Assembly: GCA_034439575.1 (NCBI GenBank)
Contig: JAWXAQ010000015.1
Location: forward strand, 160,001-224,000
From: Leptospira sp.
Lineage (GTDB): Bacteria > Spirochaetota > Leptospiria > Leptospirales > Leptospiraceae
Length of the DNA stretch: 64,000 bases
Direction of reading: 5' to 3'
Shown here: one piece after another, positions 11,416-47,652 of the stretch
Layout: each line of letters opens with the position of its first letter
Numbering within the stretch: the first letter of the stretch is position 1
The notes under the pieces: generated by a model
Told to the model about the DNA's origin: nothing
Database searches by the model: none
The model's input: only the letters and a program-made list of their open reading frames with translations
Made by a program: the position numbers and the translations under genes

Positions 11416-13389
11416 TTGGTCAAAATGGATAGAATTTACGAACATTTCAAAGAGAAATTGCTATTCATTCTGGTTTTTGTCGGAATATCGCAGTTCCATT
11501 TTTTGACAGCAGGTCCGTTTCAAGTTAACCCCTATATAAAAAACCAAGTCCCTTCTGAATGGAAATTCACGATCGAAGGCGAAAACTCACAAAAATCAGT
11601 GATCGTTGGTAAAAGTTTAGTGGATCAAGGGTACCAACCGCCCTTGTCAGGTACATATCGTTTTGAATTTTTTTATCCCGATATAAAAGTTTTTCCAGCC
11701 CAAGGTATATACTTAAATCGCATTCAAGAAGCCGATAAAATTTATTTGAACGGAGTGTTAGTTGGCGAAACAGGAAATTTTGAACCTTATGGCAAATATT
11801 CACCTAACTGGTACTACAAAAGATTGTATTACCTTCCCGATTCACTTTTAGTTCGCGGTGGAAATAATGTTATTGAAATAAAAATTTATTATCAAAACCA
11901 AACTTTCCCAGGCGGTATTTTTAGAAGTATTCCCGAAATAGGAAATTTTGAACTGCTCCAAGGGAATATTTTACGGGAAGATGGTAGAGATTTTTGTATC
12001 CTTATGTTGTTTTTTGGTATAGGTGCTTACCAGATTTTTTCTATTTTACTTAGAAAACAGCCTATTGCTAACTTTTTTCTATTTTGCTCTAGCATCTGTT
12101 TTGTTATGTGGCGTATTCCCTTATTAAATGTCACTCATCTTTATTCTGGATTAGAATTTCAAAGTTTGCTAAAAATATTTTTTATATTCCAAACTTTATT
12201 TCCCGTCGCTTTACTCCTATTTAGTTATGCATTATTTAAAGATCCGCTTAGATTAAAAGAATTTATATTACTTCTACTGATTTCAGTTATAGCGGTGATA
12301 CACCTTTTTAATATAGAAGGAAGTACGAGAATTTTACTCTTAAGAATCTGGGAAGCAGCTCTATTATTTGTGGTCAGTTTTGTTTTGATCGGAGTTTATA
12401 GAGCCTCAAAAGTTTTTAAACAAGAAGCGATTATGTTGGGAAGTGGATTTTTAGTTCTCTGTTTGGCGGGCATAACTGATATTATTATCGATGTCACGAC
12501 GGGGAAAAATATTTATCTGACTCAGTATGGATTTTTAATTTTAATGATATTATCAGCTGTAACCATTTCATTTCGGAATGCCAAAAACGAAAAAGAATTA
12601 TCTCTACTGACAAAGGATCTTGAAGCGAGAGTTCATATTCGTACTGAAGAATTAAAACAAAAAAATCACAACCTCCAACAAGATTTATTTTTTGCCTCAC
12701 AACTCCAAGGTCATTTACTTCCAAAGGAATCACCTTCAATTTCTGGACTTCGGTTACACCCAACGTATTTGCCTATGGAACAAGTGGGTGGAGATTTTTA
12801 CGATTGGGTAGAATTGAACGATAAACAATTGTTATTCTTAATTGCTGATGTAGCTGGACATGGAGTACCTGCGGCTCTTGTTTCATCCATGGTTAAAGTC
12901 CAATTTCGAGAAATTACAAAGGATATCACACATCCAGCAGAAGTATTGGCCCGAATGAACGAGTCCTTAACTCAACTAGTTAGCAAATATTATATCACTG
13001 CCACTTGTGCATTATTTGATTTAGAAAAAAAAACCGTCACAATCAGTTCTGCAGGACATCCAAATCCATTGATTTATAATGTCTACCATCCGCATTTTCA
13101 TTTTTTAAACTTACGAGGATCTATTCTTGGATGGAGAGAATCTTTTTCCTACCAAAGTATAGAAGAAAAATTAAATTCAGGTGATCGCTACTTTTTTTAT
13201 ACTGATGGTGTAACGGAAGCTAGATCAGATGGAAAATTTTTTGGTGAAGCAAATTTAATCAGACTAATACAAAATTTTCGCCAAAAAGACATTCAAGTCT
13301 TGGCAGAAAATATACAAATAGAAATTTTGGATTATTCAGATTCGGAATTAAAAGATGATGTAACTTACGTTATCATTGAAATCATTTGA
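11416..13389 (+). CDS. Membrane sensor phosphatase: sugar-binding-like extracellular domain + 7TM + SpoIIE/PP2C
   Basis: DKIYLNGVLVGETG (galactose-binding-like fold), about 7 TM helices, coiled coil, then VGGDFY, ADVAGHGV, YTDG and DDVT. Confidence 0.85.
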   Translation: MVKMDRIYEHFKEKLLFILVFVGISQFHFLTAGPFQVNPYIKNQVPSEWKFTIEGENSQKSVIVGKSLVDQGYQPPLSGTYRFEFFYPDIKVFPAQGIYLNRIQEADKIYLNGVLVGETGNFEPYGKYSPNWYYKRLYYLPDSLLVRGGNNVIEIKIYYQNQTFPGGIFRSIPEIGNFELLQGNILREDGRDFCILMLFFGIGAYQIFSILLRKQPIANFFLFCSSICFVMWRIPLLNVTHLYSGLEFQSLLKIFFIFQTLFPVALLLFSYALFKDPLRLKEFILLLLISVIAVIHLFNIEGSTRILLLRIWEAALLFVVSFVLIGVYRASKVFKQEAIMLGSGFLVLCLAGITDIIIDVTTGKNIYLTQYGFLILMILSAVTISFRNAKNEKELSLLTKDLEARVHIRTEELKQKNHNLQQDLFFASQLQGHLLPKESPSISGLRLHPTYLPMEQVGGDFYDWVELNDKQLLFLIADVAGHGVPAALVSSMVKVQFREITKDITHPAEVLARMNESLTQLVSKYYITATCALFDLEKKTVTISSAGHPNPLIYNVYHPHFHFLNLRGSILGWRESFSYQSIEEKLNSGDRYFFYTDGVTEARSDGKFFGEANLIRLIQNFRQKDIQVLAENIQIEILDYSDSELKDDVTYVIIEII

Positions 13390-34308: not shown

Positions 34309-36135
34309 ATGAAAAGATTGGTATTATTTATTTTTTTGGTCATTGCTTACTTAGCATCTAATGCAATAATGTTGGCAGTCGAACCAGACTCAATCAAACT
34401 TACATCAACCGAAGAGAAATACAAATCCCCTATGATCGAGAAAGGCATCGACTCAGATTTCACAAAGCACATGTTTATAGAACCCGAACTTGCCGCCAAA
34501 GTAAATAAATCTCAACAGATGTGGATCAATGATATCATTAGGCTCGGAATCTATCTCAGGCCTAGACAAGAAGTGAGAAACAATTTGGACTTTAATCGAA
34601 CTAATTCTGGTTATACGGACAGAACTCTTCAAACTTCATCATTATATCTTTTAATCGATCCAAATCCATATGTAACAGCAAAAATCACTTTTCAAGATGC
34701 CAGAGTTTGGGGCGGAGATTCCCCTGCTTCCTCAGGTGATATTCGCGCCGTTTTTTTTAACAATACGCCAAATATAAGTTCTGCTGGACAAACGACGTCC
34801 ACTTCATTAAACACGACTGGCATTCGCGAAGCATTCGTTATGTTAAAAAAATTGCCATTGGATGCTAAGTTACAAGTGGGTCGACAAATCTGGACATATG
34901 GTGACCAACGAATGATAGGTGGTGCGAATTGGACAATTAATGGACTTTCTTATGATGGAGCACGCTTATTTATAGAACGGCCAATTTTTAAAATTCATTT
35001 GTTTGCTGCAAGGCCATATTGGACACAAAGTGGAGTGAATGGAGTCGTGTCTGCGAATGATCCAAAATCAAATGCAAATGCGAAAGGTAGTGATACTACA
35101 CTTTTTGGAACTTACAATTCTGTTAAACTTTTTGATGTTGTGATGTTAGATTTATATTCTATAAACATTGTAAGGAAATGGATTCCGAATTCATATAATG
35201 GAACTACAGGATTACCCAATGTTTCAAGTGATGATCCAATTGCACAAAATAGAGCAAAACAAAATCAAGAAATTTATACCCTTGGTTTTCGTTTAACAAA
35301 TAGAATTGCCAATAACTTTTTACCGAAAGGGGAAGCTTGGGATTGGACATGGGAAAGTGCTTGGCAAGGGGGTACAACTGGCCGTCGTTTAAATGAAAAA
35401 ATATTAGGTGTTAGTTTAGATCCACCTTATCAAAGTTTAAAAACAGAAAGAGAAAAATATACAGGACAATTCCATGTCATTCAAACAGGATATACTTTCT
35501 TTGAAAAACTCAGATTTGGAGTCCAAGTATTATATGCATCTGGGGACAAAAATCGAAGTGATGGAAGTTCCTCAACATTTCAAACATTGGCAAATCCTAG
35601 ATTTGGCACGATTCCTTTTTTCAATGGTGTTGCAGGCATTTCAGAAAATATCGGAACCAAAAATTTGATTTCTAAAAGTATTTCTGTCTCGTATAACACG
35701 AATGATTGGGGAAATTTTCAACTAAGTTATTTTCAAAATGATAAGGCAGAAAAACAAGATGCATGGTATGCAATCAACGGTGCTAATAATTCGAGTAGTG
35801 ACCTAAGTGCCATAAATAGTTCCCCTGTATCTAGTGCCAAAGGAAGCACAGAAAATTTTTCTGACAACCCTTATACACAATCCTATTCATTAGGAAAATC
35901 CATTTATAATGAAATAGATTTAACTTGGATGGCACTGATAAATGACAATGTCTCTATCTGGTTAGGTGTTGGATATTTGAAAGCAGGAAATTCTATTTCC
36001 AATTACCGGAATAGTCCACTCCTGTATCAAGCGAGCACAAATAGTTACGAACTAAATTCAGATTTTTTTCAAGGCAAGAATAAGGTCGCTAAAGACGGTT
36101 CTATGGCCTATTTGCAACTGAATGCGGCATTCTAA
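34309..36135 (+). CDS. Alginate-export (AlgE-like) outer membrane beta-barrel
   Basis: RPRQE, QDARVWG, GRQ..YGDQRMIG..NW and DG motifs; C-terminal Phe. Confidence 0.8.
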   Translation: MKRLVLFIFLVIAYLASNAIMLAVEPDSIKLTSTEEKYKSPMIEKGIDSDFTKHMFIEPELAAKVNKSQQMWINDIIRLGIYLRPRQEVRNNLDFNRTNSGYTDRTLQTSSLYLLIDPNPYVTAKITFQDARVWGGDSPASSGDIRAVFFNNTPNISSAGQTTSTSLNTTGIREAFVMLKKLPLDAKLQVGRQIWTYGDQRMIGGANWTINGLSYDGARLFIERPIFKIHLFAARPYWTQSGVNGVVSANDPKSNANAKGSDTTLFGTYNSVKLFDVVMLDLYSINIVRKWIPNSYNGTTGLPNVSSDDPIAQNRAKQNQEIYTLGFRLTNRIANNFLPKGEAWDWTWESAWQGGTTGRRLNEKILGVSLDPPYQSLKTEREKYTGQFHVIQTGYTFFEKLRFGVQVLYASGDKNRSDGSSSTFQTLANPRFGTIPFFNGVAGISENIGTKNLISKSISVSYNTNDWGNFQLSYFQNDKAEKQDAWYAINGANNSSSDLSAINSSPVSSAKGSTENFSDNPYTQSYSLGKSIYNEIDLTWMALINDNVSIWLGVGYLKAGNSISNYRNSPLLYQASTNSYELNSDFFQGKNKVAKDGSMAYLQLNAAF

Positions 36136-36199
36136 AAAACTATAGATTTTTTCTTGTAATTCAAAACGATTGCTTTAAAATTCCGTTTAAGGCGATCAA

Positions 36200-36835
36200 T
36201 TGGGAACAGAAACAAAACAACGACGTGTCAGAAATAGTCTCTCTCGAGAAGAGATTAGAAATGTATCATTGTTGATTCTAAAGGAAGAAGGCATTGATGC
36301 TCTTTCAATGCGCCATATTGCCAATAGGCTTGGTTGCAGTGTGGCGAGTCCCTATTCGTATTATGAAAGTCAGATTGACCTTGTAAAAGATCTCATCAAA
36401 CACGGAGAAGACGAGCTATTAGGTATGTTAAAGGAAGCTATTCCTGAAGGAGAAAATATACCGACATTCGAAAAATTAGCAGGTATAGCCAGAGCTTACT
36501 TCCGTTTCGCGAGCATAAACCGTGAACTTCATAAGATAATGTTTGTTACCGATTATGGAGCCCTACATAGAAAAGCGTTTCCACAACTTCCAAAAAGTTA
36601 TCGCTTTTTTTTAGTAACACTTAGAGAAGGATTTGAAACTGGTGAAATACAATACCCAATCAATGAATACACAGCTATTGCCAGACTTATGTGGAGTTGG
36701 ATGTACGGCCTTTTGGTATTAGATATGACTGGCATGTTGCGAAAGCGCAGAGGATCAGAAAATCCCATAGAAGAAGGTATCTCCTATTTTAAAGCGCTTT
36801 TCTCATCGAAACCAAATATGCCGACTAACTTCTGA
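36200..36835 (+). CDS. TetR family regulator (WHG-type C-terminus)
   Basis: LSMRHIANRLGCSVASPYSYY HTH and WSWMYG; TTG start. Confidence 0.85.
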   Translation: MGTETKQRRVRNSLSREEIRNVSLLILKEEGIDALSMRHIANRLGCSVASPYSYYESQIDLVKDLIKHGEDELLGMLKEAIPEGENIPTFEKLAGIARAYFRFASINRELHKIMFVTDYGALHRKAFPQLPKSYRFFLVTLREGFETGEIQYPINEYTAIARLMWSWMYGLLVLDMTGMLRKRRGSENPIEEGISYFKALFSSKPNMPTNF

Positions 36836-37556
36836 TTGTTTCCTTCTCTATCCATTGATCTGTTCCCACATCAATGAGTCTTTCTTCTTTCAATCGTAAA
36901 AATTCGCTCGCGACTATTTCTATTACCATACTAGCATCCATCGGTTCCCAAATCGGATTGCCAATAGAAATGCGTGATTTTTTATTTAAATTATAAGCAT
37001 CGATAAAAATTGGTAGGATCGGAAGATTATATCGTTTGCTTAAAATTGCCATCCCACCATGGAGTTTTCTTGATTTTCGATACCCACGGAAATAAGTTCC
37101 TTCAGGAAAAATCCCAAGTGCCAAATCACCCTGTTGTATCCTTTGCGTAATTTCACGAATGGTATTTGGATCATTTTCATTTCGATTTAAAGGAATTAAA
37201 TCCATAGTTTTGACGATACCCTTTATTAACTGCTCTTTTCTAATTTGAGAAGGTCGTAGCTTCTTGGCACCTTTCGCACGTTTGCCGGCATCATAACTCG
37301 TGATAGCTGTTGCGTATATCCCATGTTTCTTTAGCAAATGCCGAATCATAAACGCGTCGTACGGCATAGAAATCATTCGAAGAAATTTATTTCTGGGTTT
37401 GATATGATTTGAAACAGCAATAAATGATTTTCCTTTTAGTTCTTTCAAAATATGTTCGTTTTGATATTTACAATTTCGGAATCCATAAATTAGCCGCATC
37501 GGCTTAATAATTAAAAGCATCAAAATAAGACCTATGAGTCTTCCTAGTTTATACAC
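36825..37556 (-). CDS. Lysophospholipid/glycerol acyltransferase (PlsC family)
   Basis: VSNH, FPEGT and LPILP motifs; GTG start. Confidence 0.8.
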   Translation of the reverse strand: MYKLGRLIGLILMLLIIKPMRLIYGFRNCKYQNEHILKELKGKSFIAVSNHIKPRNKFLRMISMPYDAFMIRHLLKKHGIYATAITSYDAGKRAKGAKKLRPSQIRKEQLIKGIVKTMDLIPLNRNENDPNTIREITQRIQQGDLALGIFPEGTYFRGYRKSRKLHGGMAILSKRYNLPILPIFIDAYNLNKKSRISIGNPIWEPMDASMVIEIVASEFLRLKEERLIDVGTDQWIEKETIRS

Positions 37557-37652
37557 TTATCTACCTACTTACAAATGATCAGAGTCTTTAAGTCCTACCT
37601 GGTTGCAAAAAAATGAATTACAGGACAGTGACAATTTCTTGAGTGTTATTTT

Positions 37653-38684
37653 ATGTTTCTGAGAGGAATACTTTGCTCCCTTCTAATTTGTTTCATTCAA
37701 TGTTCTCAATTGACCGAGGCAAAATTTAAAAATGAAAAATTAGATCAAAATCTTGTCTTTGGATTGTTACTATCAGGCATCGATTTACAAACAATTGCCG
37801 CGGTAAGGATAGGAGCTCTTCCAAATCAAACGCCAGGAAGTGATTCTGATACATCTGCACAAATTTCATTAGGTGAAAAAATATTTAAAGATAAGTCATT
37901 GTCTTTAAATGGAGTTCAATCATGTTCCACCTGTCACCTGCTAACTGGAAGAAATGCTGGTACAGATGCACAATCCACTTCAAGGGGAACACTTGGCCAA
38001 GTTGGCAGAAGAAATGCATTATCTATTTTTAATGTAGGATTTCAAGAGACACTCTTCTGGGACGGAAGAATAAACACTCTCGAAGACCAAGCCCTAATGC
38101 CGTTTGTGGATCAAAACGAGATGTCTTTACCTTCCATAAGTGAACTCATCAATAGATTAAATACTAACTCTGATTATGTGCAATTATTTGCGCAAGCCTT
38201 TCCTGATTCACCAAACATCAGTACTAGCCATATTAAAAAATCAATTTCAGCTTTTGAACGAAGTCTAATCACACCTTCAAGATTTGATGAATTTATAAAA
38301 GGTGACAATTTAGCCCTAAATATAGCAGAAAAACAGGGTCTTCGTTTATTTTTAGATCTAAATTGTATCAAGTGCCATCAAGGACATATGTTAGGTGGAG
38401 GTAAGTTTGTCAAATTAGATAGCGTTTTTTCTTACAATAACCAAGATTTGGGAAGATATGAATTTACTTTAAATGAATCCGATAAATATTTTTTCCGTAC
38501 TCCTTCACTTAGAAATGTTGCTCTTACTGCTCCTTACTTCCACGATGGAAGTGTCTCTACATTAACAGAAGCTGTTCGTAGAATGAATCATTACGAATCG
38601 CCGAGGACCATTTCCGAATCAGAAATACTAATCCTTGTTAACTTCCTAAAAACACTTTCAGATAAACCTAGGTCTCTCCTATAA
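37653..38684 (+). CDS. Di-heme cytochrome c peroxidase family lipoprotein
   Basis: CSTCH and CIKCH, FWDGR, TPSLRNVALTAPYFHDG; lipobox FIQC. Confidence 0.9.
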   Translation: MFLRGILCSLLICFIQCSQLTEAKFKNEKLDQNLVFGLLLSGIDLQTIAAVRIGALPNQTPGSDSDTSAQISLGEKIFKDKSLSLNGVQSCSTCHLLTGRNAGTDAQSTSRGTLGQVGRRNALSIFNVGFQETLFWDGRINTLEDQALMPFVDQNEMSLPSISELINRLNTNSDYVQLFAQAFPDSPNISTSHIKKSISAFERSLITPSRFDEFIKGDNLALNIAEKQGLRLFLDLNCIKCHQGHMLGGGKFVKLDSVFSYNNQDLGRYEFTLNESDKYFFRTPSLRNVALTAPYFHDGSVSTLTEAVRRMNHYESPRTISESEILILVNFLKTLSDKPRSLL

Positions 38685-38711
38685 ATATTGGCTTGACATA
38701 AAATCTTTTAT

Positions 38712-38835
38712 TTTCAGTCTGGTCATTAATCCTTCAGGGAGGAAACAGGTGAAAATCCTGTGCTGACCCGCAACTGTAATACCATCTGACTTCGGTTAAC
38801 CGAATTTAAGATGGCAAGCCAGATCTTCCCCGCAA
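38712..38835 (+). ncRNA. Cobalamin (B12) riboswitch aptamer
   Basis: GGAA-ACAGG-TGAAAAT-CCTGT (P4/T-loop), TGC-TGACCC-GCA-ACTGTAA (P5/P6), a hairpin CCATCT...AGATGG, then B12-box AAGCCAGA. TTGACA at 38693 upstream; sits in the 5' leader of 39052. Ends are approximate. Confidence 0.88.
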
Positions 38836-38921
38836 AGAAAACCTCGAGGTTCGGGATCTTTGCACACTTACACATAACGATTCTCGTAATGTGTAAAGGG
38901 GCCCCGGAGGAATATCGGGGC
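38832..38921 (+). promoter_or_regulatory. Riboswitch expression platform (three stem-loops)
   Basis: GCAAAGA...TCTTTGC (38832-38863), TTACACAT...ATGTGTAA (38868-38896) and GCCCCG...CGGGGC (38901-38921). Confidence 0.6.
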
Positions 38922-39051
38922 AATTGAATGGATCACAAAAATCGGTACATCTAAATATGTTACACCTAACGGTAAAAAGTATTTGGCGAAGCTTTCACTT
39001 TTGTTTCTATTTTAGTTCCCCTAAATTCACTTTAAATTTAGGAGATTCAAA

Positions 39052-39678
39052 ATGAAAAAAAAATTAACACTCACGGTAACAATAATTATGTTACTACTCG
39101 CAATCAATTGCGCTGAATCTGGTAAAGTTGATGAATCAAAAGCAAATGAAAATTTGTTTGTAGGTTTACTTCTTGGCCAATCAAACGGAAATACCACAGG
39201 TATTAACTCAGTTTTGAATAGTTTAGTTGAAATTCGTGGCATGTGGAAAGATGGATTTTGTAGTGGTGGAAATTGCACAGGATTTACTACTAATTTATCT
39301 ATAGCACAAGATCCATCTGGTTTTGGAATTTGGACAACTGGCTCTGGATACTTCAGAATTATCGAAGCATCTAACACCTCTCGTTATTTGATATATCAAT
39401 ACTTACCAACAGCAACTTTTGGTAATGCGAGCAAATATACTAAAATTCTCTGGACTGCACCTGCGACGACGGATTGCGAAAATGGAGCTTCTAAATGTTT
39501 CTATTATTGTACAGTGCTTAACTCCAGTTTTACGGGATTTTCCACACTTGACGAAGCACGAAATGTTGTGTTAGATGAGACAAAATACAACACCACGGAT
39601 CCAAAACGCACTGGTTGCGGAGGATTTGGTTGGAGTAAGGCAATTTTTGTATCAAATAATCCAACTAATTGGCCATAA
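39052..39678 (+). CDS. Cys-rich surface lipoprotein downstream of the B12 riboswitch
   Basis: RBS AGGAG, lipobox AINC, paired Cys, FYYC and GCGGFGWS. Confidence 0.8.
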   Translation: MKKKLTLTVTIIMLLLAINCAESGKVDESKANENLFVGLLLGQSNGNTTGINSVLNSLVEIRGMWKDGFCSGGNCTGFTTNLSIAQDPSGFGIWTTGSGYFRIIEASNTSRYLIYQYLPTATFGNASKYTKILWTAPATTDCENGASKCFYYCTVLNSSFTGFSTLDEARNVVLDETKYNTTDPKRTGCGGFGWSKAIFVSNNPTNWP

Positions 39679-39686
39679 ATGAAAAT

Positions 39687-39713
39687 CCCTACTCATTTAA
39701 ATAATGGGTAGGG
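39687..39713 (+). other. Intercistronic stem-loop
   Basis: CCCTACTCATT-TAAAT-AATGGGTAGGG (one G-U pair), no U-tract, between the two lipoprotein genes. Confidence 0.55.
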
Positions 39714-39726
39714 TAAGAGATTACAT

Positions 39727-40587
39727 ATGAAAATTAAAATATTCAAAATTATCACATTATCGATACTAATCGTTTTTTTTACAAATTGCGAAGACAAAAA
39801 TAATTCTCAAAATAATCAGGCCGTACTCGGTCTATTACTTGCAAGTAGTCAAAGTACAAATACTGGAACAAACACTAACACTTCTTGTCCGCAAGGTACT
39901 GTACCATCAAATATTCCCATTGCCACTACTGTGGTTTCCGCGAATTCCACAGTGAGTGGTTTTAATAATTCCACAAAGGCTGTGAATGGGATTTGTGGTG
40001 CGGGGAATAATTCTGGAGGCTTGGATGTTTATGCTCTCAATCTAACGGGAGCAGGTGCCACTTTGAAACTTTCTTGGGCAGGAAAATCTGTAAAAAATGT
40101 CTCAGGTATTGATTTTATAGTCTATGAGAATGCCTTCCAAGTAAGTGAAACTAGCGATCGTTATCTGTTAGATCCAATGGTAGTCGAAGTATCTTCGGAT
40201 GATGTAACTTATTGTGGTTTTACTTTAACATATGATTCAACAGCATCTACTCTAAATAAGATTTCTTCTTGGGGAGGATTTGCTGGATTAAGGCCAGTCA
40301 TATACAATATGACTTCTAAAGTATTCACATTGGATGAATTATTCACTTCAAGCGGAGATGGTTTTTTGTTAGGTGGTGGGGACGGGTTTGATTTAGATAA
40401 TTTAATTACAAGCGCTAGTTGCACGACAACGATTAGAGATTCTTTAAAATTGAATGGGATAAAATTTATAAAAATGGTTTCCGCTTCGGCTGTTACAAAT
40501 CCTAACACCGGAAACGTTTATACGTATCCACATGCGTTCGATAATGCCAGTGATATTGATGGTGTAATTGCTAAAAGTGTAGAATAA
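39727..40587 (+). CDS. Surface lipoprotein, BtuH-like / leptospiral LIC13355-like
   Basis: Lipobox FTNC, Thr/Asn linker, N..G.DFIVYENAF, P.VVEVS.D, GDGFDL, IKFIK and DIDG motifs. Confidence 0.7.
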   Translation: MKIKIFKIITLSILIVFFTNCEDKNNSQNNQAVLGLLLASSQSTNTGTNTNTSCPQGTVPSNIPIATTVVSANSTVSGFNNSTKAVNGICGAGNNSGGLDVYALNLTGAGATLKLSWAGKSVKNVSGIDFIVYENAFQVSETSDRYLLDPMVVEVSSDDVTYCGFTLTYDSTASTLNKISSWGGFAGLRPVIYNMTSKVFTLDELFTSSGDGFLLGGGDGFDLDNLITSASCTTTIRDSLKLNGIKFIKMVSASAVTNPNTGNVYTYPHAFDNASDIDGVIAKSVE

Positions 40588-40631: not shown

Positions 40632-41414
40632 TTAAACGGAAATTTCAGCGATGAGGACAGTTATATTATCAGTACCACCTTGTTCATTTGCGGCAGTCAC
40701 AAGGGCATTCACCGTATCGTCACCATTTGTTTCTGATAATATATTAGCTATTTCTTTCGCAGATAAAAGACCATGAAGACCGTCTGAACAAATTAATATC
40801 TTATCTCTAGGTTTAATTTTGATTTTAAAATCGACTGGCTTTATTGTATGCGAAGGGCCTAGCGCTTGTGAAACGACGTTTCTCTGAGGATGACTTTCAG
40901 CTTCTTTCGGAGTAATTTTACCCATGCGAACTAAATTGGAAACAAAGGTTTGGTCTTCACTTATTTGATTGAATTCACCATCTCGGAATAAATACAATCG
41001 GCTATCTCCCACTTGAGCACAATTAGCACTCCCCCCACTCAGATAACAACTCGTAGCCACAGCACCCATTCTTACTAAATCTGGATTTTGCTCTGCTAGT
41101 TTTTTTAAATGTTCATTTGCTTTTTCTAAGGCAACAACGGGAACTCGACTAGATTTTTCTTTTTCGATTTCTAACCAATGTTCTGCGATATAATTTACAA
41201 TACTTTGGCTCGCGATTTGACCACCAGCAAGTCCACCCATACCATCAATTGCGGCGAGAAATATTCCATCACCACGAAGTGATAAATTTGTCCAAGCTTG
41301 TTTATTTTCCGTTTGTGAAATTTCTGAAATTTTACCTCTGATAATGATATAATTATCTTCGTTTAAACTTCTTCTTCTTCCAAGATCACTTTTTCTATAA
41401 ACGGATACCTTCAT
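40632..41414 (-). CDS. PP2C Ser/Thr phosphatase (PrpC/Stp type)
   Basis: GRRRSLNED, DGMGG..GG..AS, VGDSRLY, HPQRN, CSDGL and GGTDNIT; real start ATG 41414. Confidence 0.92.
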   Translation of the reverse strand: MKVSVYRKSDLGRRRSLNEDNYIIIRGKISEISQTENKQAWTNLSLRGDGIFLAAIDGMGGLAGGQIASQSIVNYIAEHWLEIEKEKSSRVPVVALEKANEHLKKLAEQNPDLVRMGAVATSCYLSGGSANCAQVGDSRLYLFRDGEFNQISEDQTFVSNLVRMGKITPKEAESHPQRNVVSQALGPSHTIKPVDFKIKIKPRDKILICSDGLHGLLSAKEIANILSETNGDDTVNALVTAANEQGGTDNITVLIAEISV

Positions 41415-41425
41415 TAGCGAAATTT

Positions 41426-42190
41426 TTATACGGCTGTCCATCCACCATCGACAGGCAGAGCGACTCCCGTTATGAATGAAGCGCCTTCTCCTAGTAACCA
41501 AACACATGTTTGCGCTATCTCTTCAGGTTTTGCTAAACGACCTAGGGGATGCATAGCTTCTATAGCTTTTTTCGTTTCTTCTGGTTTACCAAATGCATTC
41601 ATAATGATATCACTCATATCTGTTTCAATGACACCTGGACAAATCATATTCACACGGATCTTTTTCGAAGCATATTCCAATGCTATACTTTTCGTTAATC
41701 CAACAATTGCATGTTTTGTGGCGGAATATACAGCATTTCCTTTATAACCAACTAAACTAGTAGCTGAACCAACATTGACTATAGAACCACCATTTGTTTT
41801 CATCATTGCGACTTCTTCTTTTAAACAATGCCATGTGCCTTTTACATTCACATCAATGACAGACATTGCTAAATCATCTGGATACTTTTCGATCATAGCA
41901 ATGGTTCCAAGTAAACCCGCGTTGTTTACTGCTAAATCTAATTTGCCAAACTTGGCTTTTATTTCTGAAAACAAATTTATAATTTCTTCATGTTTTGAAA
42001 TATCACATTTTATAAATATCGATTTTGGAGAATGTATGGAAATTTCACTAAGAGCTTTATTTCCCAGTTCTACTCTCCTACCAGAAATCACGACAATTGC
42101 CCCACGTTTTCCTAGTTCACGGGCAATATCCAATCCCAATCCAGATGTACTCCCAGTAACAAGCGCTATTTTACCTTCAAAATCTTTCAT
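41426..42190 (-). CDS. SDR family oxidoreductase
   Basis: TGSTSGLG, NNAG, YSATK and ITG..LPVDGG. Confidence 0.93.
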   Translation of the reverse strand: MKDFEGKIALVTGSTSGLGLDIARELGKRGAIVVISGRRVELGNKALSEISIHSPKSIFIKCDISKHEEIINLFSEIKAKFGKLDLAVNNAGLLGTIAMIEKYPDDLAMSVIDVNVKGTWHCLKEEVAMMKTNGGSIVNVGSATSLVGYKGNAVYSATKHAIVGLTKSIALEYASKKIRVNMICPGVIETDMSDIIMNAFGKPEETKKAIEAMHPLGRLAKPEEIAQTCVWLLGEGASFITGVALPVDGGWTAV

Positions 42191-43036
42191 TCATTTTCTA
42201 CCTTTTGAACCTTGGTTTTTGGGAGCATCCTTTACTTTTCTTTGATAGGCTTTCGCTAATTCTTCCGCTCGGGAAAATATAGAATTTAAATCAGAATATT
42301 TTCCATAATTTAGTTCTTCCGCCAAACTCAAATTATATCTGATTTCATTTAAACAAGCAAACAAGATATCAAGGGCCCTAATCTTTTCACGACGATACGG
42401 GGATTTTCTTGCTCTGGCGGCAGAATTTACTGCTTTTACGCTATATTTGCGAAGTCCAGAGGCTAATATTTCTTGTTCGTGACTTGGCAAATCATTGGCT
42501 ATCGTATATACATTTTTTAGTAGTTTGAGTGTCGTGATCCAAAGTGGAAATCGTTTATACACCTCACCAAATTTACGCATCTCTTCAGAGGTATTCTTGA
42601 TATCTAGTTCTTTTGCCGCAATTAGATCTAAAAATTCCTTTGGAATTGGGACAACTTTCCTTTCTTCATAATTAAAAAATAATACAGAGATACGGACTCT
42701 TGTTACAGAGACCATACCATGATCTTTTGTTAGATGAAAAAATAACTCAAATGACTTTTCACGCAAATTTTCTATAGTAACTTTTGCTTCAACTAAATCG
42801 CCAAAGAGTAGCTCAGATTCGTACGTAACCGTCGCATTACTAAAAATGATGCTACGTCCATAAATGTCCAAAACAGAAAATCCAAGGTATTGGAAAAATT
42901 GCAAATGAGCTTCTAGTACAAGATCGAGTACTGTCGCAAACGAAACATGTAATTCCCCCCAAAGGTCCGTTTTGCGGATTGGGATCTCAGTCTTAAAATG
43001 ATATTTACTTGGGAGTGGTAAATCGACTTTCGCCAT
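42191..43036 (-). CDS. Hotdog (thioesterase-like) domain fused to a four-helix-bundle (23S rRNA IVP/Avd-like) domain
   Basis: aa 1-140 resemble 4HBT/YbgC hotdog proteins; aa ~159-270 match the four-helix-bundle pattern (LW..L..VY..LP..E..L.S.LRK...L.EIRY.L.LA.EL.Y). Confidence 0.7.
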   Translation of the reverse strand: MAKVDLPLPSKYHFKTEIPIRKTDLWGELHVSFATVLDLVLEAHLQFFQYLGFSVLDIYGRSIIFSNATVTYESELLFGDLVEAKVTIENLREKSFELFFHLTKDHGMVSVTRVRISVLFFNYEERKVVPIPKEFLDLIAAKELDIKNTSEEMRKFGEVYKRFPLWITTLKLLKNVYTIANDLPSHEQEILASGLRKYSVKAVNSAARARKSPYRREKIRALDILFACLNEIRYNLSLAEELNYGKYSDLNSIFSRAEELAKAYQRKVKDAPKNQGSKGRK

Positions 43037-43037
43037 A

Positions 43038-43487
43038 TTATTTTACCGAATATCGATTCCTGAATGTTTCAGGTACATTCATGGTTTTTTTATCTTTATA
43101 ATCAAAGAAAATTAACACGGTTTTTGCGACCGAAGCAATTTCGCCATTTTCTTTTTTAACAACTGTAATTAATTCAAACGATTTATTTCCGAAATTGGTA
43201 GGTGTTAATTGGAACGTTAAAACTTCACCAGCTTTCACTTCGCTTTTAAATTCGACTTCCATCTTCGGCACAATGATATTTGAACCAGCTATGTTCCATT
43301 TTGAATCCCCAGTGGATGATAAAAACAAATCAAAGGCTTCATTCACAAGTAAAACCATGTTTTCATATGTCACATGACTTACATAGGCACCAGAAGCGGT
43401 GATAGCACTGCGAGCATCTGCATGCCTTACTGGAAATTTTGTCTCATAAGCAAAGTCAGTTGGTATTTGGATTCCTGTATCAGCCAT
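43038..43487 (-). CDS. Hotdog-fold thioesterase family protein
   Basis: PVRHAD...HV, EVEFKSEV..GE, GNKSFE and FFDYK..K...VPE.FR. Confidence 0.8.
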   Translation of the reverse strand: MADTGIQIPTDFAYETKFPVRHADARSAITASGAYVSHVTYENMVLLVNEAFDLFLSSTGDSKWNIAGSNIIVPKMEVEFKSEVKAGEVLTFQLTPTNFGNKSFELITVVKKENGEIASVAKTVLIFFDYKDKKTMNVPETFRNRYSVK

Positions 43488-43631
43488 ATCACTCCGAATC
43501 TTTAATCGAAATTAAGTTCTTCTCCTCAAATATCGACACTTATATGTACGTTCTTTAAAAAGCAAAAAACTAGCTGGACAAAGCTAGGGAATCACTCTAT
43601 ATAGTAAGCTACTTCAAACCTCGGAGAATCC

Positions 43632-44906
43632 ATGGTAGAAAGAAAAAACCAACGAGTTGTCATTACTGGTATAGGATCTATACTACCGAATGCACTCACT
43701 GTCTCTGATTTTTGGAGTCATCTAGTCAAGGGTGAATCGCAAGTAGATTTTTTGACTAGGTTTTCTACTGAAGATTTGAGAGTCAAAACGGGTGCAGAGT
43801 TACGCCAATTCGACTATAAAGAGCATTTGAAAGATTTAGATCCTGCCCATGCGAAAAATTATAATCGAGAGACATTGGCCATCATGTCCGCATTAAGCGA
43901 TGCACAAAAAGATGCAGGACTTGACAAAAATACAGTCGCACCTAACAGGGTTGGATTTATTGACTCCTCTTCCCGCGCATCACTTGCTTGGTGGGAACAC
44001 GCATGGAATTTATATAATGAATCAAAAGACGATTCACATTTTAATAAATACGCCGTTCTGACTTCAATGGCCTCAAATCCGACCAATCTAACAGCAATTT
44101 ATGCGAACATCCAAGGGTTTGTCACGACAATAACAGCCGCTTGTGTGGGCGGTCATCACGCCGCAGCACTTTGTTTTCAAGCAATCAGAAAAAATAGAGC
44201 TGATGTGATGTATGCGGGAGGGCACGAGTTCCCTCTCCTTAAACCGCTTATGAAAATGTATTCCGATCCTTCTAGTTCAGTGATGTCTCCTGAATCTGTG
44301 AATCCAAAAAATGCCATGCGACCTTATGATAAATCCAGAGAAGGGTTTGTACTCGGTGAGGGAGCCATGTGCCTTTGTTTGGAATCATACGACCATGCCA
44401 TAAATCGTGGTGCTAGAATCTATGCGGAAATAACTGGTACTCTTAGTTACAATGAAGCAAGTCATGCTATGCGAATGGATATGACGGGCGTTAAAGCTGC
44501 CAATGGTATGAGTGATTTACTTCGCATTAGCAAACGCTCTTTGAAAGATTTTGATTATTTTTGTGGCCATGGAACTGCTACGTATAATAATGATTTGGCC
44601 GAAAGCCGCGCTCTAAAATTATTATATGACGGGGCACCAAAAACCACTTGGGCACCACTTGGATCTATCAAACCCATTTATGGTCATACGTTTGGTGCCG
44701 CTGGTATCATCAATTTAGCAGCCTCTGCTCTAATGATTCACAACCAAACACTTTGTCCGACGATTAATTTGAAAAATCCAGATGATGAATGTGACCACGA
44801 TCATGTGGCAGAAGGCTCGAGAAAAATCAAACTCAATAATATTATGTCATTGGCATTTGCCATAGGTAGCCAATCTTCATTCGTCAGTTTAGCCAAAGCA
44901 GATTAA
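43632..44906 (+). CDS. Beta-ketoacyl synthase, FabF/KAS II-like (divergent)
   Basis: RVVITGIG, TAACVGG (Cys), GFVLGEGA, GHGTAT (His) and SIK..YGHT (His); the GFGG motif is replaced by AIGS. Confidence 0.88.
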   Translation: MVERKNQRVVITGIGSILPNALTVSDFWSHLVKGESQVDFLTRFSTEDLRVKTGAELRQFDYKEHLKDLDPAHAKNYNRETLAIMSALSDAQKDAGLDKNTVAPNRVGFIDSSSRASLAWWEHAWNLYNESKDDSHFNKYAVLTSMASNPTNLTAIYANIQGFVTTITAACVGGHHAAALCFQAIRKNRADVMYAGGHEFPLLKPLMKMYSDPSSSVMSPESVNPKNAMRPYDKSREGFVLGEGAMCLCLESYDHAINRGARIYAEITGTLSYNEASHAMRMDMTGVKAANGMSDLLRISKRSLKDFDYFCGHGTATYNNDLAESRALKLLYDGAPKTTWAPLGSIKPIYGHTFGAAGIINLAASALMIHNQTLCPTINLKNPDDECDHDHVAEGSRKIKLNNIMSLAFAIGSQSSFVSLAKAD

Positions 44907-44912
44907 TATTCT

Positions 44913-46667
44913 ATGAACCAAAGAATCGCCAAAAGATTTGAAGACCCTGACCAAATGGTAAAAGAAATGTTACCACTTGGTGCTTCAATCCATTTGGCGG
45001 CGACTATGTCTAGACCCAATGCATTGATATACGCTTTGACTAGACAATTCTTTGATAAAAAGCCAGACTTCACGATCAGTGTGGCAGGTCTTCATTCCAG
45101 TGCTCATGCTCTTACTATGGCAGGTGTGATCAAAAAAGCCATCATAGGATTTGCGGGCGACAATTACCCACGTCCGCAACCAAATGCTCTTTATTCAAAT
45201 ATCTTAAAGGGAGAACCTTTCGAAGTAGAACTTTGGTCTCTCCTAACATTGATTCAACGATTGCAAGCAGGGGCAATGCGTTTACCCGGATTTGTTACTA
45301 ATTCACTATTGAAAACCGACATGATTACAGACAAATTAAATAAAACTGTGCATGTTTATCCTTCACCGGATTCAACGGAGAAGGATCCAAAAAATTTTGC
45401 AGTCGTACAACCACTTAACCCAGATTTTACTTTAATCCACGCAGTTCTTGGCGATGAAGATGGAAATTTACTCCTTACAAATCCTTCAGGTGAAGGAATT
45501 TGGGGAGCCATGGCCGCTACTAAAGGTGTGATAGCAACTTGTGAAAGAATTGTCCCAAGAGGTTCAATACCAGCAGAACTTATATCTATTCCTGGGACCA
45601 GAGTGATATCTATCGCCGAAGCTAAGTTTGGTGCACATCCTCAATCATTGCGCATATTTCCACTCCCTCATCTTGAGATTTATAATGAATTGTCAACTTA
45701 TATGGATGACTACGAGTTTCAAATTGATGCAAACCATGCGGCGGCTGGAGATGAAAAACTAAAGAAACGTTGGATGGATGAATGGGTTTATGGACCGAAG
45801 AGCCATGAAGATTACCTTCGTTATGTGGGCAGCCAACGCCTCAGAAAATTAACAAAACTTCCAGACCCTCAACCCATGTTACCGCCCCAAGATGCAGAAT
45901 CAGTCAATGATTCCGAACAAATGATCATTCTTGCCGCGAGAGCCATTATGGAACATGTGAAACGGCGAGGATATACGACACTCCTAGCTGGAATCGGAGC
46001 CGCACATATCGCTTGTTGGACGGCCGCTCGCCTTCTTGCCAAAGAAGGAATTCCGGTTCACGTCATGACAGAACTCGGTTTTTATTCCATGACACCTTCT
46101 GTGGGAGATGTATTTCTCTTTAGCCAACTTCATGCCAATGGATCACAAGGTCTTTCGGACATCACACAGATTTTAGGTATGCTCGTTCCCGATAAGTGTT
46201 TGGGAGTGATGGGTGCAGCAGAAATAGATTGGTTTGGAAACGTGAACTCTATTGCCACAGCAAAGGGAAAATTTATCGTAGGTTCGGGCGGTGCCAATGA
46301 TATTGCCTCAACAGCAGATTGTATTATTGTAGCAAAAGCGATACGTCAAAGGTATGTAAGAAAGGTCAATTTTATTACCACAAATGGGGATAGAGTCAAA
46401 GAAGCGGTTTGCCAATTCGGTCGATTCAGAAGGGATAAAATGGAACATCTTTTTGAATTCACTAATTGGATAGCCCCTCCCTCAGATCCCGAAATGGAAG
46501 TGGAAGAAGCAGTTTTAAAATTCACAAGTTGGTTTCCTCCAGATGAAATTCCTCCCAAGGATGAGCCAAAGCCCACTTCTGAGGAATTGACAATTCTTAG
46601 ATCACTTGATCCAGATCGAATTTATATAGAGCAGTTTATGGTTTACAGAAGCCTTCCAGGAGATTGA
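44913..46667 (+). CDS. Fused alpha/beta class I CoA-transferase (GctAB-like)
   Basis: PDFTLIHA..GDEDGN and GAHP (alpha part); LAGIG, MTELG, GAAEIDWFGNVNS and GSGGAND (beta part). Confidence 0.82.
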   Translation: MNQRIAKRFEDPDQMVKEMLPLGASIHLAATMSRPNALIYALTRQFFDKKPDFTISVAGLHSSAHALTMAGVIKKAIIGFAGDNYPRPQPNALYSNILKGEPFEVELWSLLTLIQRLQAGAMRLPGFVTNSLLKTDMITDKLNKTVHVYPSPDSTEKDPKNFAVVQPLNPDFTLIHAVLGDEDGNLLLTNPSGEGIWGAMAATKGVIATCERIVPRGSIPAELISIPGTRVISIAEAKFGAHPQSLRIFPLPHLEIYNELSTYMDDYEFQIDANHAAAGDEKLKKRWMDEWVYGPKSHEDYLRYVGSQRLRKLTKLPDPQPMLPPQDAESVNDSEQMIILAARAIMEHVKRRGYTTLLAGIGAAHIACWTAARLLAKEGIPVHVMTELGFYSMTPSVGDVFLFSQLHANGSQGLSDITQILGMLVPDKCLGVMGAAEIDWFGNVNSIATAKGKFIVGSGGANDIASTADCIIVAKAIRQRYVRKVNFITTNGDRVKEAVCQFGRFRRDKMEHLFEFTNWIAPPSDPEMEVEEAVLKFTSWFPPDEIPPKDEPKPTSEELTILRSLDPDRIYIEQFMVYRSLPGD

Positions 46668-46668
46668 T

Positions 46669-47652
46669 ATGAATAGCATGGGTGCAGGACAGTTAAAATA
46701 TTTAGGTGTTGAATTCCGCGGAGTTGGACACTACCTCCCCGAGCGAATCGTGTATAACGATGAAATCCGTTCTCGATTGAAATACCCAGAAATGCACCCA
46801 GCAGAAAAAGCTGTGATCGGAAATATTGGTGTCACGGAACGTCACCGTGTAAATGAAACAGAGACGGTTCCCTTTATGGCAATGAAGGCCGCACAAGACG
46901 CATTAGCTGATGCTAAGATGAAACCGGAAGATATTGATTTATTTATTTTGGCCAATTGGACAGACAGATACTACCTTCCCGATCTCGCACCTCAAGCCTC
47001 AAAACTAACAGGGACAAAAAATGCACTCGCCTTTGATATTTCAACAGCTTGCACTGGTTTTGTGCATGGCGTTCAAATGGCGGCATGTTATTTACAATCT
47101 GGTCGATGGAAAAACGCCCTTGTCATCGGTTCTGAACGATTTAGTGTCAGAACAAGAATGGGTGGATATGGTGAATTTACTGCGGGTGATGCGGCGGCTG
47201 GTGTTGTATTATCGCATACAGGTAGTCAGACGACAGGTCTTATTGATTCATTTTTAGTAGATGAGGCAGACTTAGCCGATATTATCGTGACAGGTCCACC
47301 ACCACAAAGTTATGTGAAAAGTTATCCTGAACTTGTGACAAATGCAGCAGACCTCACATTGAAAGCATTTGATATGCTTATGGAAAAACATGGCTTAAAA
47401 GAAACCGATGTGGATTGGGTAGTTCCTCATCCAGGTACAGATATTGTTGTTCAAGATGTACTAAATCGGATTAAATTCCCGCGCGAAAAAGTATTGGGAA
47501 ATTTTGACAGAGTGGGAAACGCATCGGCGGCTTCAATCCCTATCGTTATATCGGAATATTATAAAAAAGGAATAATCAAGAAAGGTCAGCTGTTGTTAAC
47601 ACCTGCTGTCGGTGGAGGCTTCTATTGGGGTGGCCTTCTTTTCCGTTTCTAG
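46669..47652 (+). CDS. FabH/KAS III-like condensing enzyme (divergent)
   Basis: DISTACTGF (Cys), GDAA, PHPGT (His), GNASAASIP (Asn) and GGGFYWG. Confidence 0.88.
   Translation: MNSMGAGQLKYLGVEFRGVGHYLPERIVYNDEIRSRLKYPEMHPAEKAVIGNIGVTERHRVNETETVPFMAMKAAQDALADAKMKPEDIDLFILANWTDRYYLPDLAPQASKLTGTKNALAFDISTACTGFVHGVQMAACYLQSGRWKNALVIGSERFSVRTRMGGYGEFTAGDAAAGVVLSHTGSQTTGLIDSFLVDEADLADIIVTGPPPQSYVKSYPELVTNAADLTLKAFDMLMEKHGLKETDVDWVVPHPGTDIVVQDVLNRIKFPREKVLGNFDRVGNASAASIPIVISEYYKKGIIKKGQLLLTPAVGGGFYWGGLLFRF

Follow-up and report, generated by a model that had tools for sequence, protein, structure and literature searches.

A divergent gene cluster in Leptospira

A 64,000-nt stretch of contig JAWXAQ010000015.1 from a Leptospira sp. 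genome (assembly GCA_034439575.1; 4.1 Mb, 37 contigs, 99.98% complete) carries seven tightly packed open reading frames (ORFs) in two divergent arms at 40632–47652. The whole stretch is termed the window, and positions are window coordinates unless another contig or locus is named. The right arm encodes a FabF-like ketosynthase (KS), a fused CoA-transferase (CoAT) and a FabH-like ketosynthase (KSIII); the KS and CoAT genes are 6 bp apart, and the CoAT and KSIII genes 1 bp. On the left arm are genes for a stand-alone hotdog protein, a hotdog fusion protein, a short-chain dehydrogenase/reductase (SDR) and a PP2C-type phosphatase. Here the two hotdog genes are separated by 1 bp and the fusion and SDR genes by 0 bp. 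The SDR/PP2C gap is 11 bp if the PP2C begins at Met32 (position 41414), and the longest PP2C ORF overlaps the SDR gene by 82 bp. An eighth gene, for a 1784-aa kinase-AAA-GAF-PP2C protein (the giant kinase), starts 20 bp past the KSIII gene. These positions and gaps, and the 144 bp shared by the arms, are as given in a preliminary description of this DNA, and Pfam and NCBIfam back every domain call made there; the eighth gene is not mentioned in it. It also stands that the window encodes no acyl carrier protein (ACP), FabD or phosphopantetheinyl transferase: the sole PP-binding match of the genome is on contig C29 and the sole AcpS match on contig C8.

By sequence comparison, the KS-CoAT-KSIII core, referred to below as the triad, is a recognisable relative of the already known pamamycin-type cassette. 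The pathway had been put forward as undescribed. This is not wholly so, since the triad is homologous and syntenic to a cassette found in actinobacterial noniterative type II polyketide synthase (PKS) clusters. Open-literature searches found no paper on the Leptospira cluster itself, and what appears to be new is the stripped-down form of the cassette across the Leptospiraceae, its linkage to genes for Ser/Thr signalling, and the triad as a module that crosses phyla.

The two ketosynthases

The KS and KSIII share folds and catalytic triads with housekeeping FabF and FabH, which are also their best-scoring named families and solved structures. They differ from these enzymes in sub-cut-off scores, in separate clades, in other loop signatures and in the patchy spread of the cassette in Leptospira.

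Alignment of the KS to E. coli FabF shows an intact C-H-H triad (C164, H304 and H341 of FabF), and its best matches in both PDB and NCBIfam are FabF. Its score against the fabF model TIGR03150 is 278.3 bits, where the cut-off is 493.75, and it does not qualify as a FabF equivalog. The same alignment bears out the loop change from GFGG to AIGS that was pointed out in the preliminary description. The KS is 43–48% identical to actinobacterial triad KSs and 29–33% identical to FabFs, and the triad KSs of both phyla have in common the signatures ACVGGHHA, HGTAT, KPIYGH and (F/Y)A(I/F)GSQ, the last in place of FGFGG. A quick IQ-TREE maximum-likelihood search, supported by the Shimodaira–Hasegawa-like approximate likelihood ratio test (SH-aLRT) only, was made with 47 rows, after exclusion of two duplicate-locus ORFs and of hits aligned over fewer than 300 residues. 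In this tree the triad KSs, 10 from spirochaetes and 11 from Actinobacteria, fall together in a clade (SH-aLRT 98), and 13 housekeeping FabFs from E. coli, Streptomyces and spirochaetes fall with Streptomyces type II KSs in a separate clade (SH-aLRT 98). No second FabF/B-type KS is found in the genome; the next hit after the 278-bit KS has 22 bits, and the other notable PF00109 hit is a thiolase. On these comparisons the KS is the single FabF-like gene of its genome, yet not a FabF.

The KSIII shows a parallel pattern. Its score against the fabH model TIGR00747 is 198–199 bits with a cut-off of 292.1, and neither score nor grouping places it with FabH. A true FabH is encoded elsewhere in the genome (C27:112627–113619; 328.5 bits against the same cut-off). 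The C-H-N triad is intact in an alignment to E. coli FabH, and the reported change from PHQAN to PHPGT is real; PH(P/S)G(T/N/S) is a signature of the whole clade. Identity is 37–45% to actinobacterial triad KSIIIs and 29% to E. coli FabH. A second tree of the same kind (33 rows, without one partial ORF and without hits whose alignment spans less than 270 residues) joins the triad KSIIIs in one clade (SH-aLRT 100), to the exclusion of E. coli FabH, Streptomyces FabH and the genome's own FabH. Nor is the KSIII a member of the DarB or StlD families, with 55.5 bits against NCBIfam DarB (cut-off 550) and 58.6 bits against StlD/DarB (cut-off 450). Its PDB matches are led by FabH (2ebd, 163 bits), ahead of PqsD (3h76, 98.6 bits) and CorB (4yuc, 86.6 bits), so that it is not closer to PqsD or CorB than to FabH.

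A functional analogy for a KSIII acting on succinate-derived units may be found in BioZ, the 3-oxopimeloyl-ACP synthase. BioZ is of the FabH type and is primed with a dicarboxylyl-CoA, a CoA ester whose distal carboxylate is free. BioZ is among the PDB matches of the KSIII (9j6e, 79.3 bits), but it is far more distant than ordinary FabH (163 bits), belongs to another clade and hands its product to ACP. The basic residues that we take to be those that dock ACP, R127/K128 and R206 in FabF and R249 in FabH, are not kept in the triad KS and KSIII clades, respectively, which lends weak support to ACP independence.

The CoA-transferase

The CoAT matches PF01144 over residues 10–236 with 127.6 bits (cut-off 23), and thus has a family-I CoA-transferase domain; its C-terminal half scores 20 bits, below the 23-bit cut-off of this model. 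In a PDB search with a CoAT family profile, the N-terminal half hits GctA and the C-terminal half GctB (60 and 48 bits, remote matches). By hhalign, the C-terminal half aligns with E. coli AtoA at a probability of 87.6%, with T-E387-L-G-F on S-E-N-G-F and GSGGAND (residues 457–463) on GMGGAMD. E387, G389 and G457–D463 are invariant in 11/11 aligned members from three phyla. The catalytic Glu of the β-subunit S-E-N-G and the GxGG oxyanion motif are motif definitions of family-I CoA-transferases, and with both kept the CoAT should be catalytically active. A comparison of the CoAT profile with E. coli YdiF covers only the N-terminal part, at 56% probability, and carries no information on the catalytic Glu.

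The nearest solved relative of the CoAT is glutaconate CoA-transferase, which acts on dicarboxylates. As in GctAB (PDB 1poi), SCOT, AtoDA and PcaIJ, the catalytic Glu and GxGG are conserved, and the halves match GctA and GctB/AtoA. The CoAT differs in that both halves form one 584-aa chain, in that the similarity is remote, and in that its gene is coupled to that of a KS. The family is limited to Leptospiraceae (47–90% identity), many Actinobacteria (40–46%, full length) and one myxobacterium.

A family-I transferase next to thiolase-fold enzymes might also point to catabolism, with the KSs cleaving rather than condensing and the cluster degrading a 3-oxo-dicarboxylate (3-oxoadipate-like) or another keto acid. 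The 3-oxoadipate CoA-transferase PcaIJ is in the same family (TIGR02429, 40.8 bits), and Leptospira live on fatty-acid β-oxidation. This is very unlikely: the KS and KSIII keep the C-H-H and C-H-N triads of decarboxylative condensation and not thiolase residues, the characterised relatives of the cassette context are all biosynthetic, and the genome has ordinary thiolases.

Distribution and synteny

Window proteins were mapped by tblastn on 78 loci around CoAT homologues, 47 from Actinobacteria and 31 from spirochaetes (Table 1). The triad genes are shared by both groups. The giant kinase, hotdog fusion, PP2C and window-type SDR are found in spirochaete loci and in none of the actinobacterial ones.

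Table 1. Occurrence of the cluster genes in loci around CoAT homologues
Feature	Actinobacteria	Spirochaetes
Triad-type KS directly upstream of CoAT	47/47	10/31
Triad-type KS anywhere in locus	47/47	26/31
Triad-type KSIII in locus	42/47	24/31
KSIII <=2.5 kb downstream of CoAT	41/47	24/31
Giant kinase	0/47	23/31
Hotdog fusion	0/47	21/31
SDR at window-type threshold (>= 200 bits)	0/47	23/31
PP2C	0/47	19/31

Synteny across Leptospira had been proposed as a check, and the cassette proves to be conserved in many spirochaete loci with a gene order that is partly rearranged. In pathogenic and intermediate Leptospira (L016–L031 and L074), the KS is displaced to the far, PP2C end of the minus-strand arm, and the order becomes KS(+) PP2C(−) SDR(−) hotdog fusion(−) CoAT(+) KSIII(+) kinase(+). 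The giant kinase comes after the KSIII in 23/31 spirochaete loci. Three other Leptospiraceae genera have each of KS and CoAT in every sampled genome (11/11, 11/11 and 4/4). The first two of these are large genera of Leptospira, and the named loci with the cassette include L. interrogans. Saprophytes that we take to belong to the biflexa type are not among the named Leptospira matches of the protein search.

A KS-CoAT fusion in Streptomyces was considered and rejected; the long ORF is an upstream over-extension, and the KS lies in another frame.

Relation to the pamamycin and nonactin clusters

The closest known setting of the triad is the pamamycin (pam) cluster. A locus from S. alboflavus (L086) has a TetR regulator, an MFS exporter and a minus-strand arm of KS, KSIII and ACP genes that correspond to pamF, pamG and pamC. 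Its plus-strand operon runs KS, CoAT, KSIII, KSIII, SDR, KSIII, KS, a 520-aa SDR and SDR, which brings the total to seven KSs and one ACP. This gene order matches the published pam cluster layout (PMC10644645; PMC8176718), and S. alboflavus is reported to produce pamamycin (PMC12984230). Since L086 reproduces the pam layout, its triad is, by position, pamA-pamB-pamD. The window KS, CoAT and KSIII are 44%, 44% and 37% identical to the L086 proteins and are encoded in the same collinear KS-CoAT-KSIII order. Both ketosynthases are monophyletic with a pam-locus protein in the clades described above (SH-aLRT 98 for the KS clade and 100 for the KSIII clade).

The likeness to pam thus consists in the order and orientation of KS, CoAT and KSIII and in discrete FabF- and FabH-type KSs. 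The differences are considerable in gene content. The pam cluster, whose product is a macrodiolide, contains seven KSs, an ACP (pamC), several ketoreductases (KRs), an exporter and an aminotransferase/methyltransferase pair. In Leptospira the three-gene core is accompanied by a single SDR, by one or two hotdog proteins and by genes for Ser/Thr signalling, and there is neither a cluster ACP nor a further KS. Within the catalytic residues there is one more difference: the pamD-position KSIII of L086 (9757–10716) has Gln (R-G-Q-T-T-S) where FabH has the catalytic Asn274, and the Leptospira proteins keep Asn. An orthologue at L080 9739–10698 is nearly identical to this KSIII in the tree; L080 was outside the motif alignment.

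The cluster for nonactin and the macrotetrolides (non) of S. griseus offers a second comparison. The NaPDoS2 paper ascribes nonactin and pamamycin to noniterative type II PKSs that contain several KSs of types II and III and incorporate acetate, propionate and succinate (PMC9582728). Another source gives the non cluster five KSs, four KRs and no ACP (PMC10817512). As far as these two sources go, the likeness to Leptospira is in discrete KSs that act on CoA esters without an ACP (PMC10817512; PMC9582728). In loci of the L047 type, from the S. griseus clade, the triad is part of a five-KS locus that also encodes an enoyl-CoA hydratase, and the 17.7 kb of such a locus contain no ORF of at least 75 aa with a PP-binding match. 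A collinear locus, L049, comes from a complete Streptomyces genome, where ~128 kb separate the triad from the closest PP-binding domain. The non genes in the supplementary table of PMC10817512 (nonS, L, D, E, M, J and K) do not correspond one-to-one with the L047 order, and the L047-type locus could not be equated with non. Nor does Leptospira have the makings of a whole pam or non pathway, in which extra KSs, several KRs and an enoyl-CoA hydratase of the NonS/PamS type build tetrahydrofuran hydroxy acids: the cluster has no enoyl-CoA hydratase and one SDR, and the genome no further KS.

In Streptomyces alanosinicus (L044) the triad is followed, after 0.8 kb, by a gene for an AfsA-type (A-factor/butenolide) synthase at 11650–12660. 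Its neighbours encode MaoC, acyl-CoA dehydrogenase, HAD and P450 proteins, and an ACP and KS pair is 6 kb away. The cassette may feed a signalling-lactone pathway in some actinomycetes. The several cluster contexts, i.e. those of L086, the L047 type and L044, mark the triad as a portable three-gene module, which is found in two phyla and several cluster types.

Pamamycin biosynthesis is reported to proceed via 3-oxoadipyl-CoA, formed from malonyl-CoA and succinyl-CoA (PMC10731712). A less probable alternative to the scheme set out below, in line with the preliminary description, is that the CoAT activates a free acid (e.g. a 3-oxoacid or dicarboxylate) as starter or extender, and that the KSs make a pyrone-, resorcinol- or β-keto-acid-type product with no succinate. 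Activation of free acids from acetyl- or succinyl-CoA is typical of family-I CoA-transferases, stand-alone KSs are well known to work on CoA esters, the present data do not fix the substrate, and the AfsA-type gene next to the L044 triad is a non-macrolide context. On the other hand, the sole characterised context of the cassette is the one reported to go via 3-oxoadipyl-CoA, and the KSIII is far under the DarB and StlD cut-offs and nearer to FabH than to PqsD or CorB among solved structures.

Housekeeping fatty-acid synthesis

FabF above 493.75 bits is present in 0/61 sampled Leptospiraceae genomes; 45/61 have a hit at E <= 1e-20, and these are mostly orthologues of the window KS at about 280–307 bits. 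True FabF (500–640 bits) is found in 31/37 sampled Spirochaetota outside the Leptospiraceae, and Streptomyces that carry the triad KS also have a true FabF at 497–505 bits. With the lineage as a whole devoid of FabF, the argument that the only copy must be the housekeeping one would have misled.

The preliminary description held that its proposal would fail if the KSs grouped with housekeeping enzymes and were the only copies. The second half applies to the KS, which is the only copy; the first does not, as the KS is outside the FabF clade, and so the proposal is not refuted on these grounds. Its suggestion that separate housekeeping fab genes be sought was likewise borne out in part: a separate FabH is present on contig C27, and a separate FabF is absent.

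KS and CoAT are each found in 0/11 other sampled genomes of the GTDB genus to which the window belongs, at least 8 of the 11 having been searched over all but 2–7 kb. These 11 genomes also lack FabF. A gene that is missing from close relatives that themselves have no FabF cannot be an essential elongation enzyme.

It is therefore unlikely that KS and KSIII represent divergent ACP-dependent elongation that replaces a missing FabF/FabB and uses AcpP to make or remodel a specialised fatty acid. The KS is, to be sure, the only FabF/B-type KS in the genome, the next PF00109 hit being a thiolase; ACP, AcpS and a true FabH exist, and the best matches of the KS are FabF. But its score is far below the FabF cut-off (278 against 493.75 bits), and it clades with Streptomyces secondary-metabolism KSs whose hosts also hold a true FabF. 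The absence of the cluster from the 11 FabF-less genomes of the same genus, the absence of FabD above cut-off and the loss of the presumed ACP-docking residues argue in the same direction.

No FabD above cut-off was found in the whole genome; the best match, a divergent 389-aa acyltransferase on contig C35, has 32.6 bits against a cut-off of 260.9. The genome keeps AcpP, AcpS and the true FabH, with no FabF or FabD above cut-off, and its type II fatty acid synthesis would be incomplete, which fits the fatty-acid dependence of leptospires. Leptospira is regarded as unable to make fatty acids, in line with the 0/61 count for FabF, and as poor in secondary metabolism.

A possible pathway

Trees, scores and distribution indicate, as the preliminary description proposed, that the KSs are non-housekeeping and that the cluster belongs to a specialised pathway, most likely one that works on CoA esters. 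We place the probability at about 0.5 that this pathway has a pamA-pamB-pamD-type core acting on CoA esters in the manner outlined here.

In this scheme, the KS would condense succinyl-CoA with malonyl-CoA to 3-oxoadipyl-CoA, and the KSIII would join an acyl-CoA to 3-oxoadipyl-CoA. The CoAT, via a Glu387 thioester, would take CoA off the C1 carboxyl and transfer it to the distal one, so that the succinate end becomes the new thioester. The freed β-keto acid could then lose CO2. The SDR would reduce a keto group, and one or both hotdog proteins would release the acid from CoA. Every step would take place on CoA esters, with no dedicated ACP. The CoA 'flip' is suggested because both succinate ends need activation and because the nearest solved relative of the CoAT acts on dicarboxylates. 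It departs from the preliminary description, in which the CoAT supplied a starter or extender unit; here it would instead shift CoA within an intermediate that is a dicarboxylate. With two acyl-CoA carboxyltransferases encoded in the genome, (methyl)malonyl-CoA should be available.

Several points weigh against this scheme and the kinship on which it is built. The assignment of L086 to pam is based on gene order and species, and not on a named record. Database labels of the homologues are generic CoA-transferase names, with no PamA or PamB among them. PamA reportedly condenses succinyl-CoA with malonyl-CoA, but no statement on the role of either PamA or PamB was found in open papers. The chemistry is inferred from homology, synteny and catalytic residues. 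A cluster without its own ACP could still draw on the housekeeping AcpP, an ACP is present in the pam cluster, and the ACP-docking residues judged to be lost are presumed ones. Both trees are quick searches with SH-aLRT as their one measure of support. Leptospira has no further KSs, no NonS/PamS-type enoyl-CoA hydratase and no downstream macrolide genes. Finally, four loci from metagenome-assembled Leptospiraceae genomes (L035, L037, L038 and L082) have a CoAT (50–51% identity) with no triad KS or KSIII within the <=8 kb available on each side; in these lineages either the cassette is split or the CoAT is used alone.

In the absence of further KSs or macrolide genes, the product in Leptospira must differ from pamamycin and be much smaller. 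A rather speculative and, on balance, improbable extension of the pathway is that a minimal ACP-free cassette, present in pathogens also, converts succinyl-CoA, malonyl-CoA and a fatty-acid-derived acyl-CoA to a short 4,6-dioxo or 4-hydroxy acid, which could close to a γ-lactone. This compound would be a diffusible signal read by the co-inherited giant kinase-GAF-PP2C protein and the PP2C, in the manner of a butyrolactone-like hormone system. Pamamycin induces aerial mycelium, one actinobacterial cassette (L044) has an AfsA-type synthase as its neighbour, and, if the idea is correct, a spirochaete hormone system would share its biosynthetic core with Streptomyces developmental signals.

Whatever the product, spirochaetes, pathogens included, probably make a small molecule via this cassette. 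A conserved polyketide-type cassette tied to Ser/Thr signalling points to a new metabolite in an important zoonotic genus, and the module may offer a minimal, tractable system in which to see how succinate enters polyketides without an ACP.

The left arm, signalling genes and promoter region

The features of the cluster are listed in Table 2.

Table 2. Genes and intergenic region of the Leptospira cluster, in window coordinates
Feature	Position	Strand	Match or note
PP2C-type Ser/Thr phosphatase (Stp1/IreP-like)	40632–41414, longest ORF to 41507	−	PP2C_2 41.9 bits
Classical SDR, probable ketoreductase	41426–42190	−	adh_short_C2 208.6 bits, KR 57.1 bits
Hotdog (4HBT_2) and four-helix-bundle (23S_rRNA_IVP / TIGR02436) fusion, thioesterase-like	42191–43036	−	Pfam, NCBIfam
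Stand-alone hotdog (4HBT_2), thioesterase-like	43038–43487	−	Pfam 4HBT_2 49.1 bits
Divergent intergenic region, 144 bp	43488–43631		TGGACA-17 nt-TATATA element toward KS arm
FabF-like KS, triad clade, pamA position	43632–44906	+	PF00109, PF02801
Fused alpha-beta family-I CoA-transferase (CoAT), 584 aa, pamB position	44913–46667	+	PF01144
FabH-like KSIII, triad clade, pamD position	46669–47652	+	PF08541, PF08545
Ser/Thr kinase-AAA_16 (STAND)-GAF-SpoIIE/PP2C protein, 1784 aa	47673–53027	+	Pfam; 20 bp downstream of KSIII

The PP2C reaches 202.8 bits against NCBIfam Stp1_PP2C_phos (cut-off 230) in a match that begins at residue 39, and Met32 is its probable start. Both the PP2C and the giant kinase-GAF-PP2C protein are additions specific to Leptospira. 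They probably act in regulation of the pathway or in response to its product, although this is conjecture. The SDR has as its best PDB match a generic SDR (7djs, 178 bits), with actinorhodin ketoreductase at 144 bits.

In the hotdog fusion protein, the N-terminal domain resembles the 4-hydroxybenzoyl-CoA thioesterase 5wh9 (E 9e-5) and the C-terminal domain resembles 2gsc. The four-helix bundle belongs to the '23S rRNA intervening sequence protein' or Avd-like family. Loci of pathogenic and intermediate Leptospira retain the fusion, with tblastn matches over about 250–280 residues. A PDB sequence search with the stand-alone hotdog gave no match. Loci of the intermediate type have a separate hotdog at 45–51% identity; in those of the pathogen type, matches to it are weak (22–29% identity) and overlap the fusion gene.

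The intergenic region 43488–43631 has a mean identity of 81% to that of two close relatives, with an invariant core, GCTGGACAAAG. This is also the −35-like core of the TGGACA-17 nt-TATATA element (within 43570–43610), which lies about 45 bp upstream of the KS start and is likely to be the promoter of the plus-strand arm. It should be added that a general promoter and terminator scan showed no excess over shuffled sequences (38 found, 37.4 expected). An 18-bp palindrome at 43570–43587 overlaps the promoter element and was considered as an operator, but was rejected as its arms are not conserved in the close relatives.

Base composition, flanking genes and source

The G+C content is 0.40–0.44 over the KS-CoAT-KSIII arm (43500–47500), compared with 0.35–0.38 in the flanks and the minus-strand arm. 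The raised value could reflect foreign origin or amino-acid composition. Since the two phyla are reciprocally monophyletic in the trees, any transfer of the cassette would be old.

Upstream of the cluster, at 34309–40587, are genes for an alginate-export-type porin, a TetR regulator, a PlsC-type acyltransferase, a di-haem cytochrome c peroxidase, a 208-aa ORF with no family match and a LIC_13355-family lipoprotein. No link of these upstream genes to the cluster was seen; the 208-aa ORF and the lipoprotein gene are syntenic in the two closest relatives only.

Among sequencing runs, the stretch is complete in several microbial-mat metagenomes and partial in lake, groundwater, river and wastewater metagenomes; the runs listed are all of DNA, with none of RNA among them. 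The source genome appears to be that of an environmental, metagenome-assembled Leptospira.

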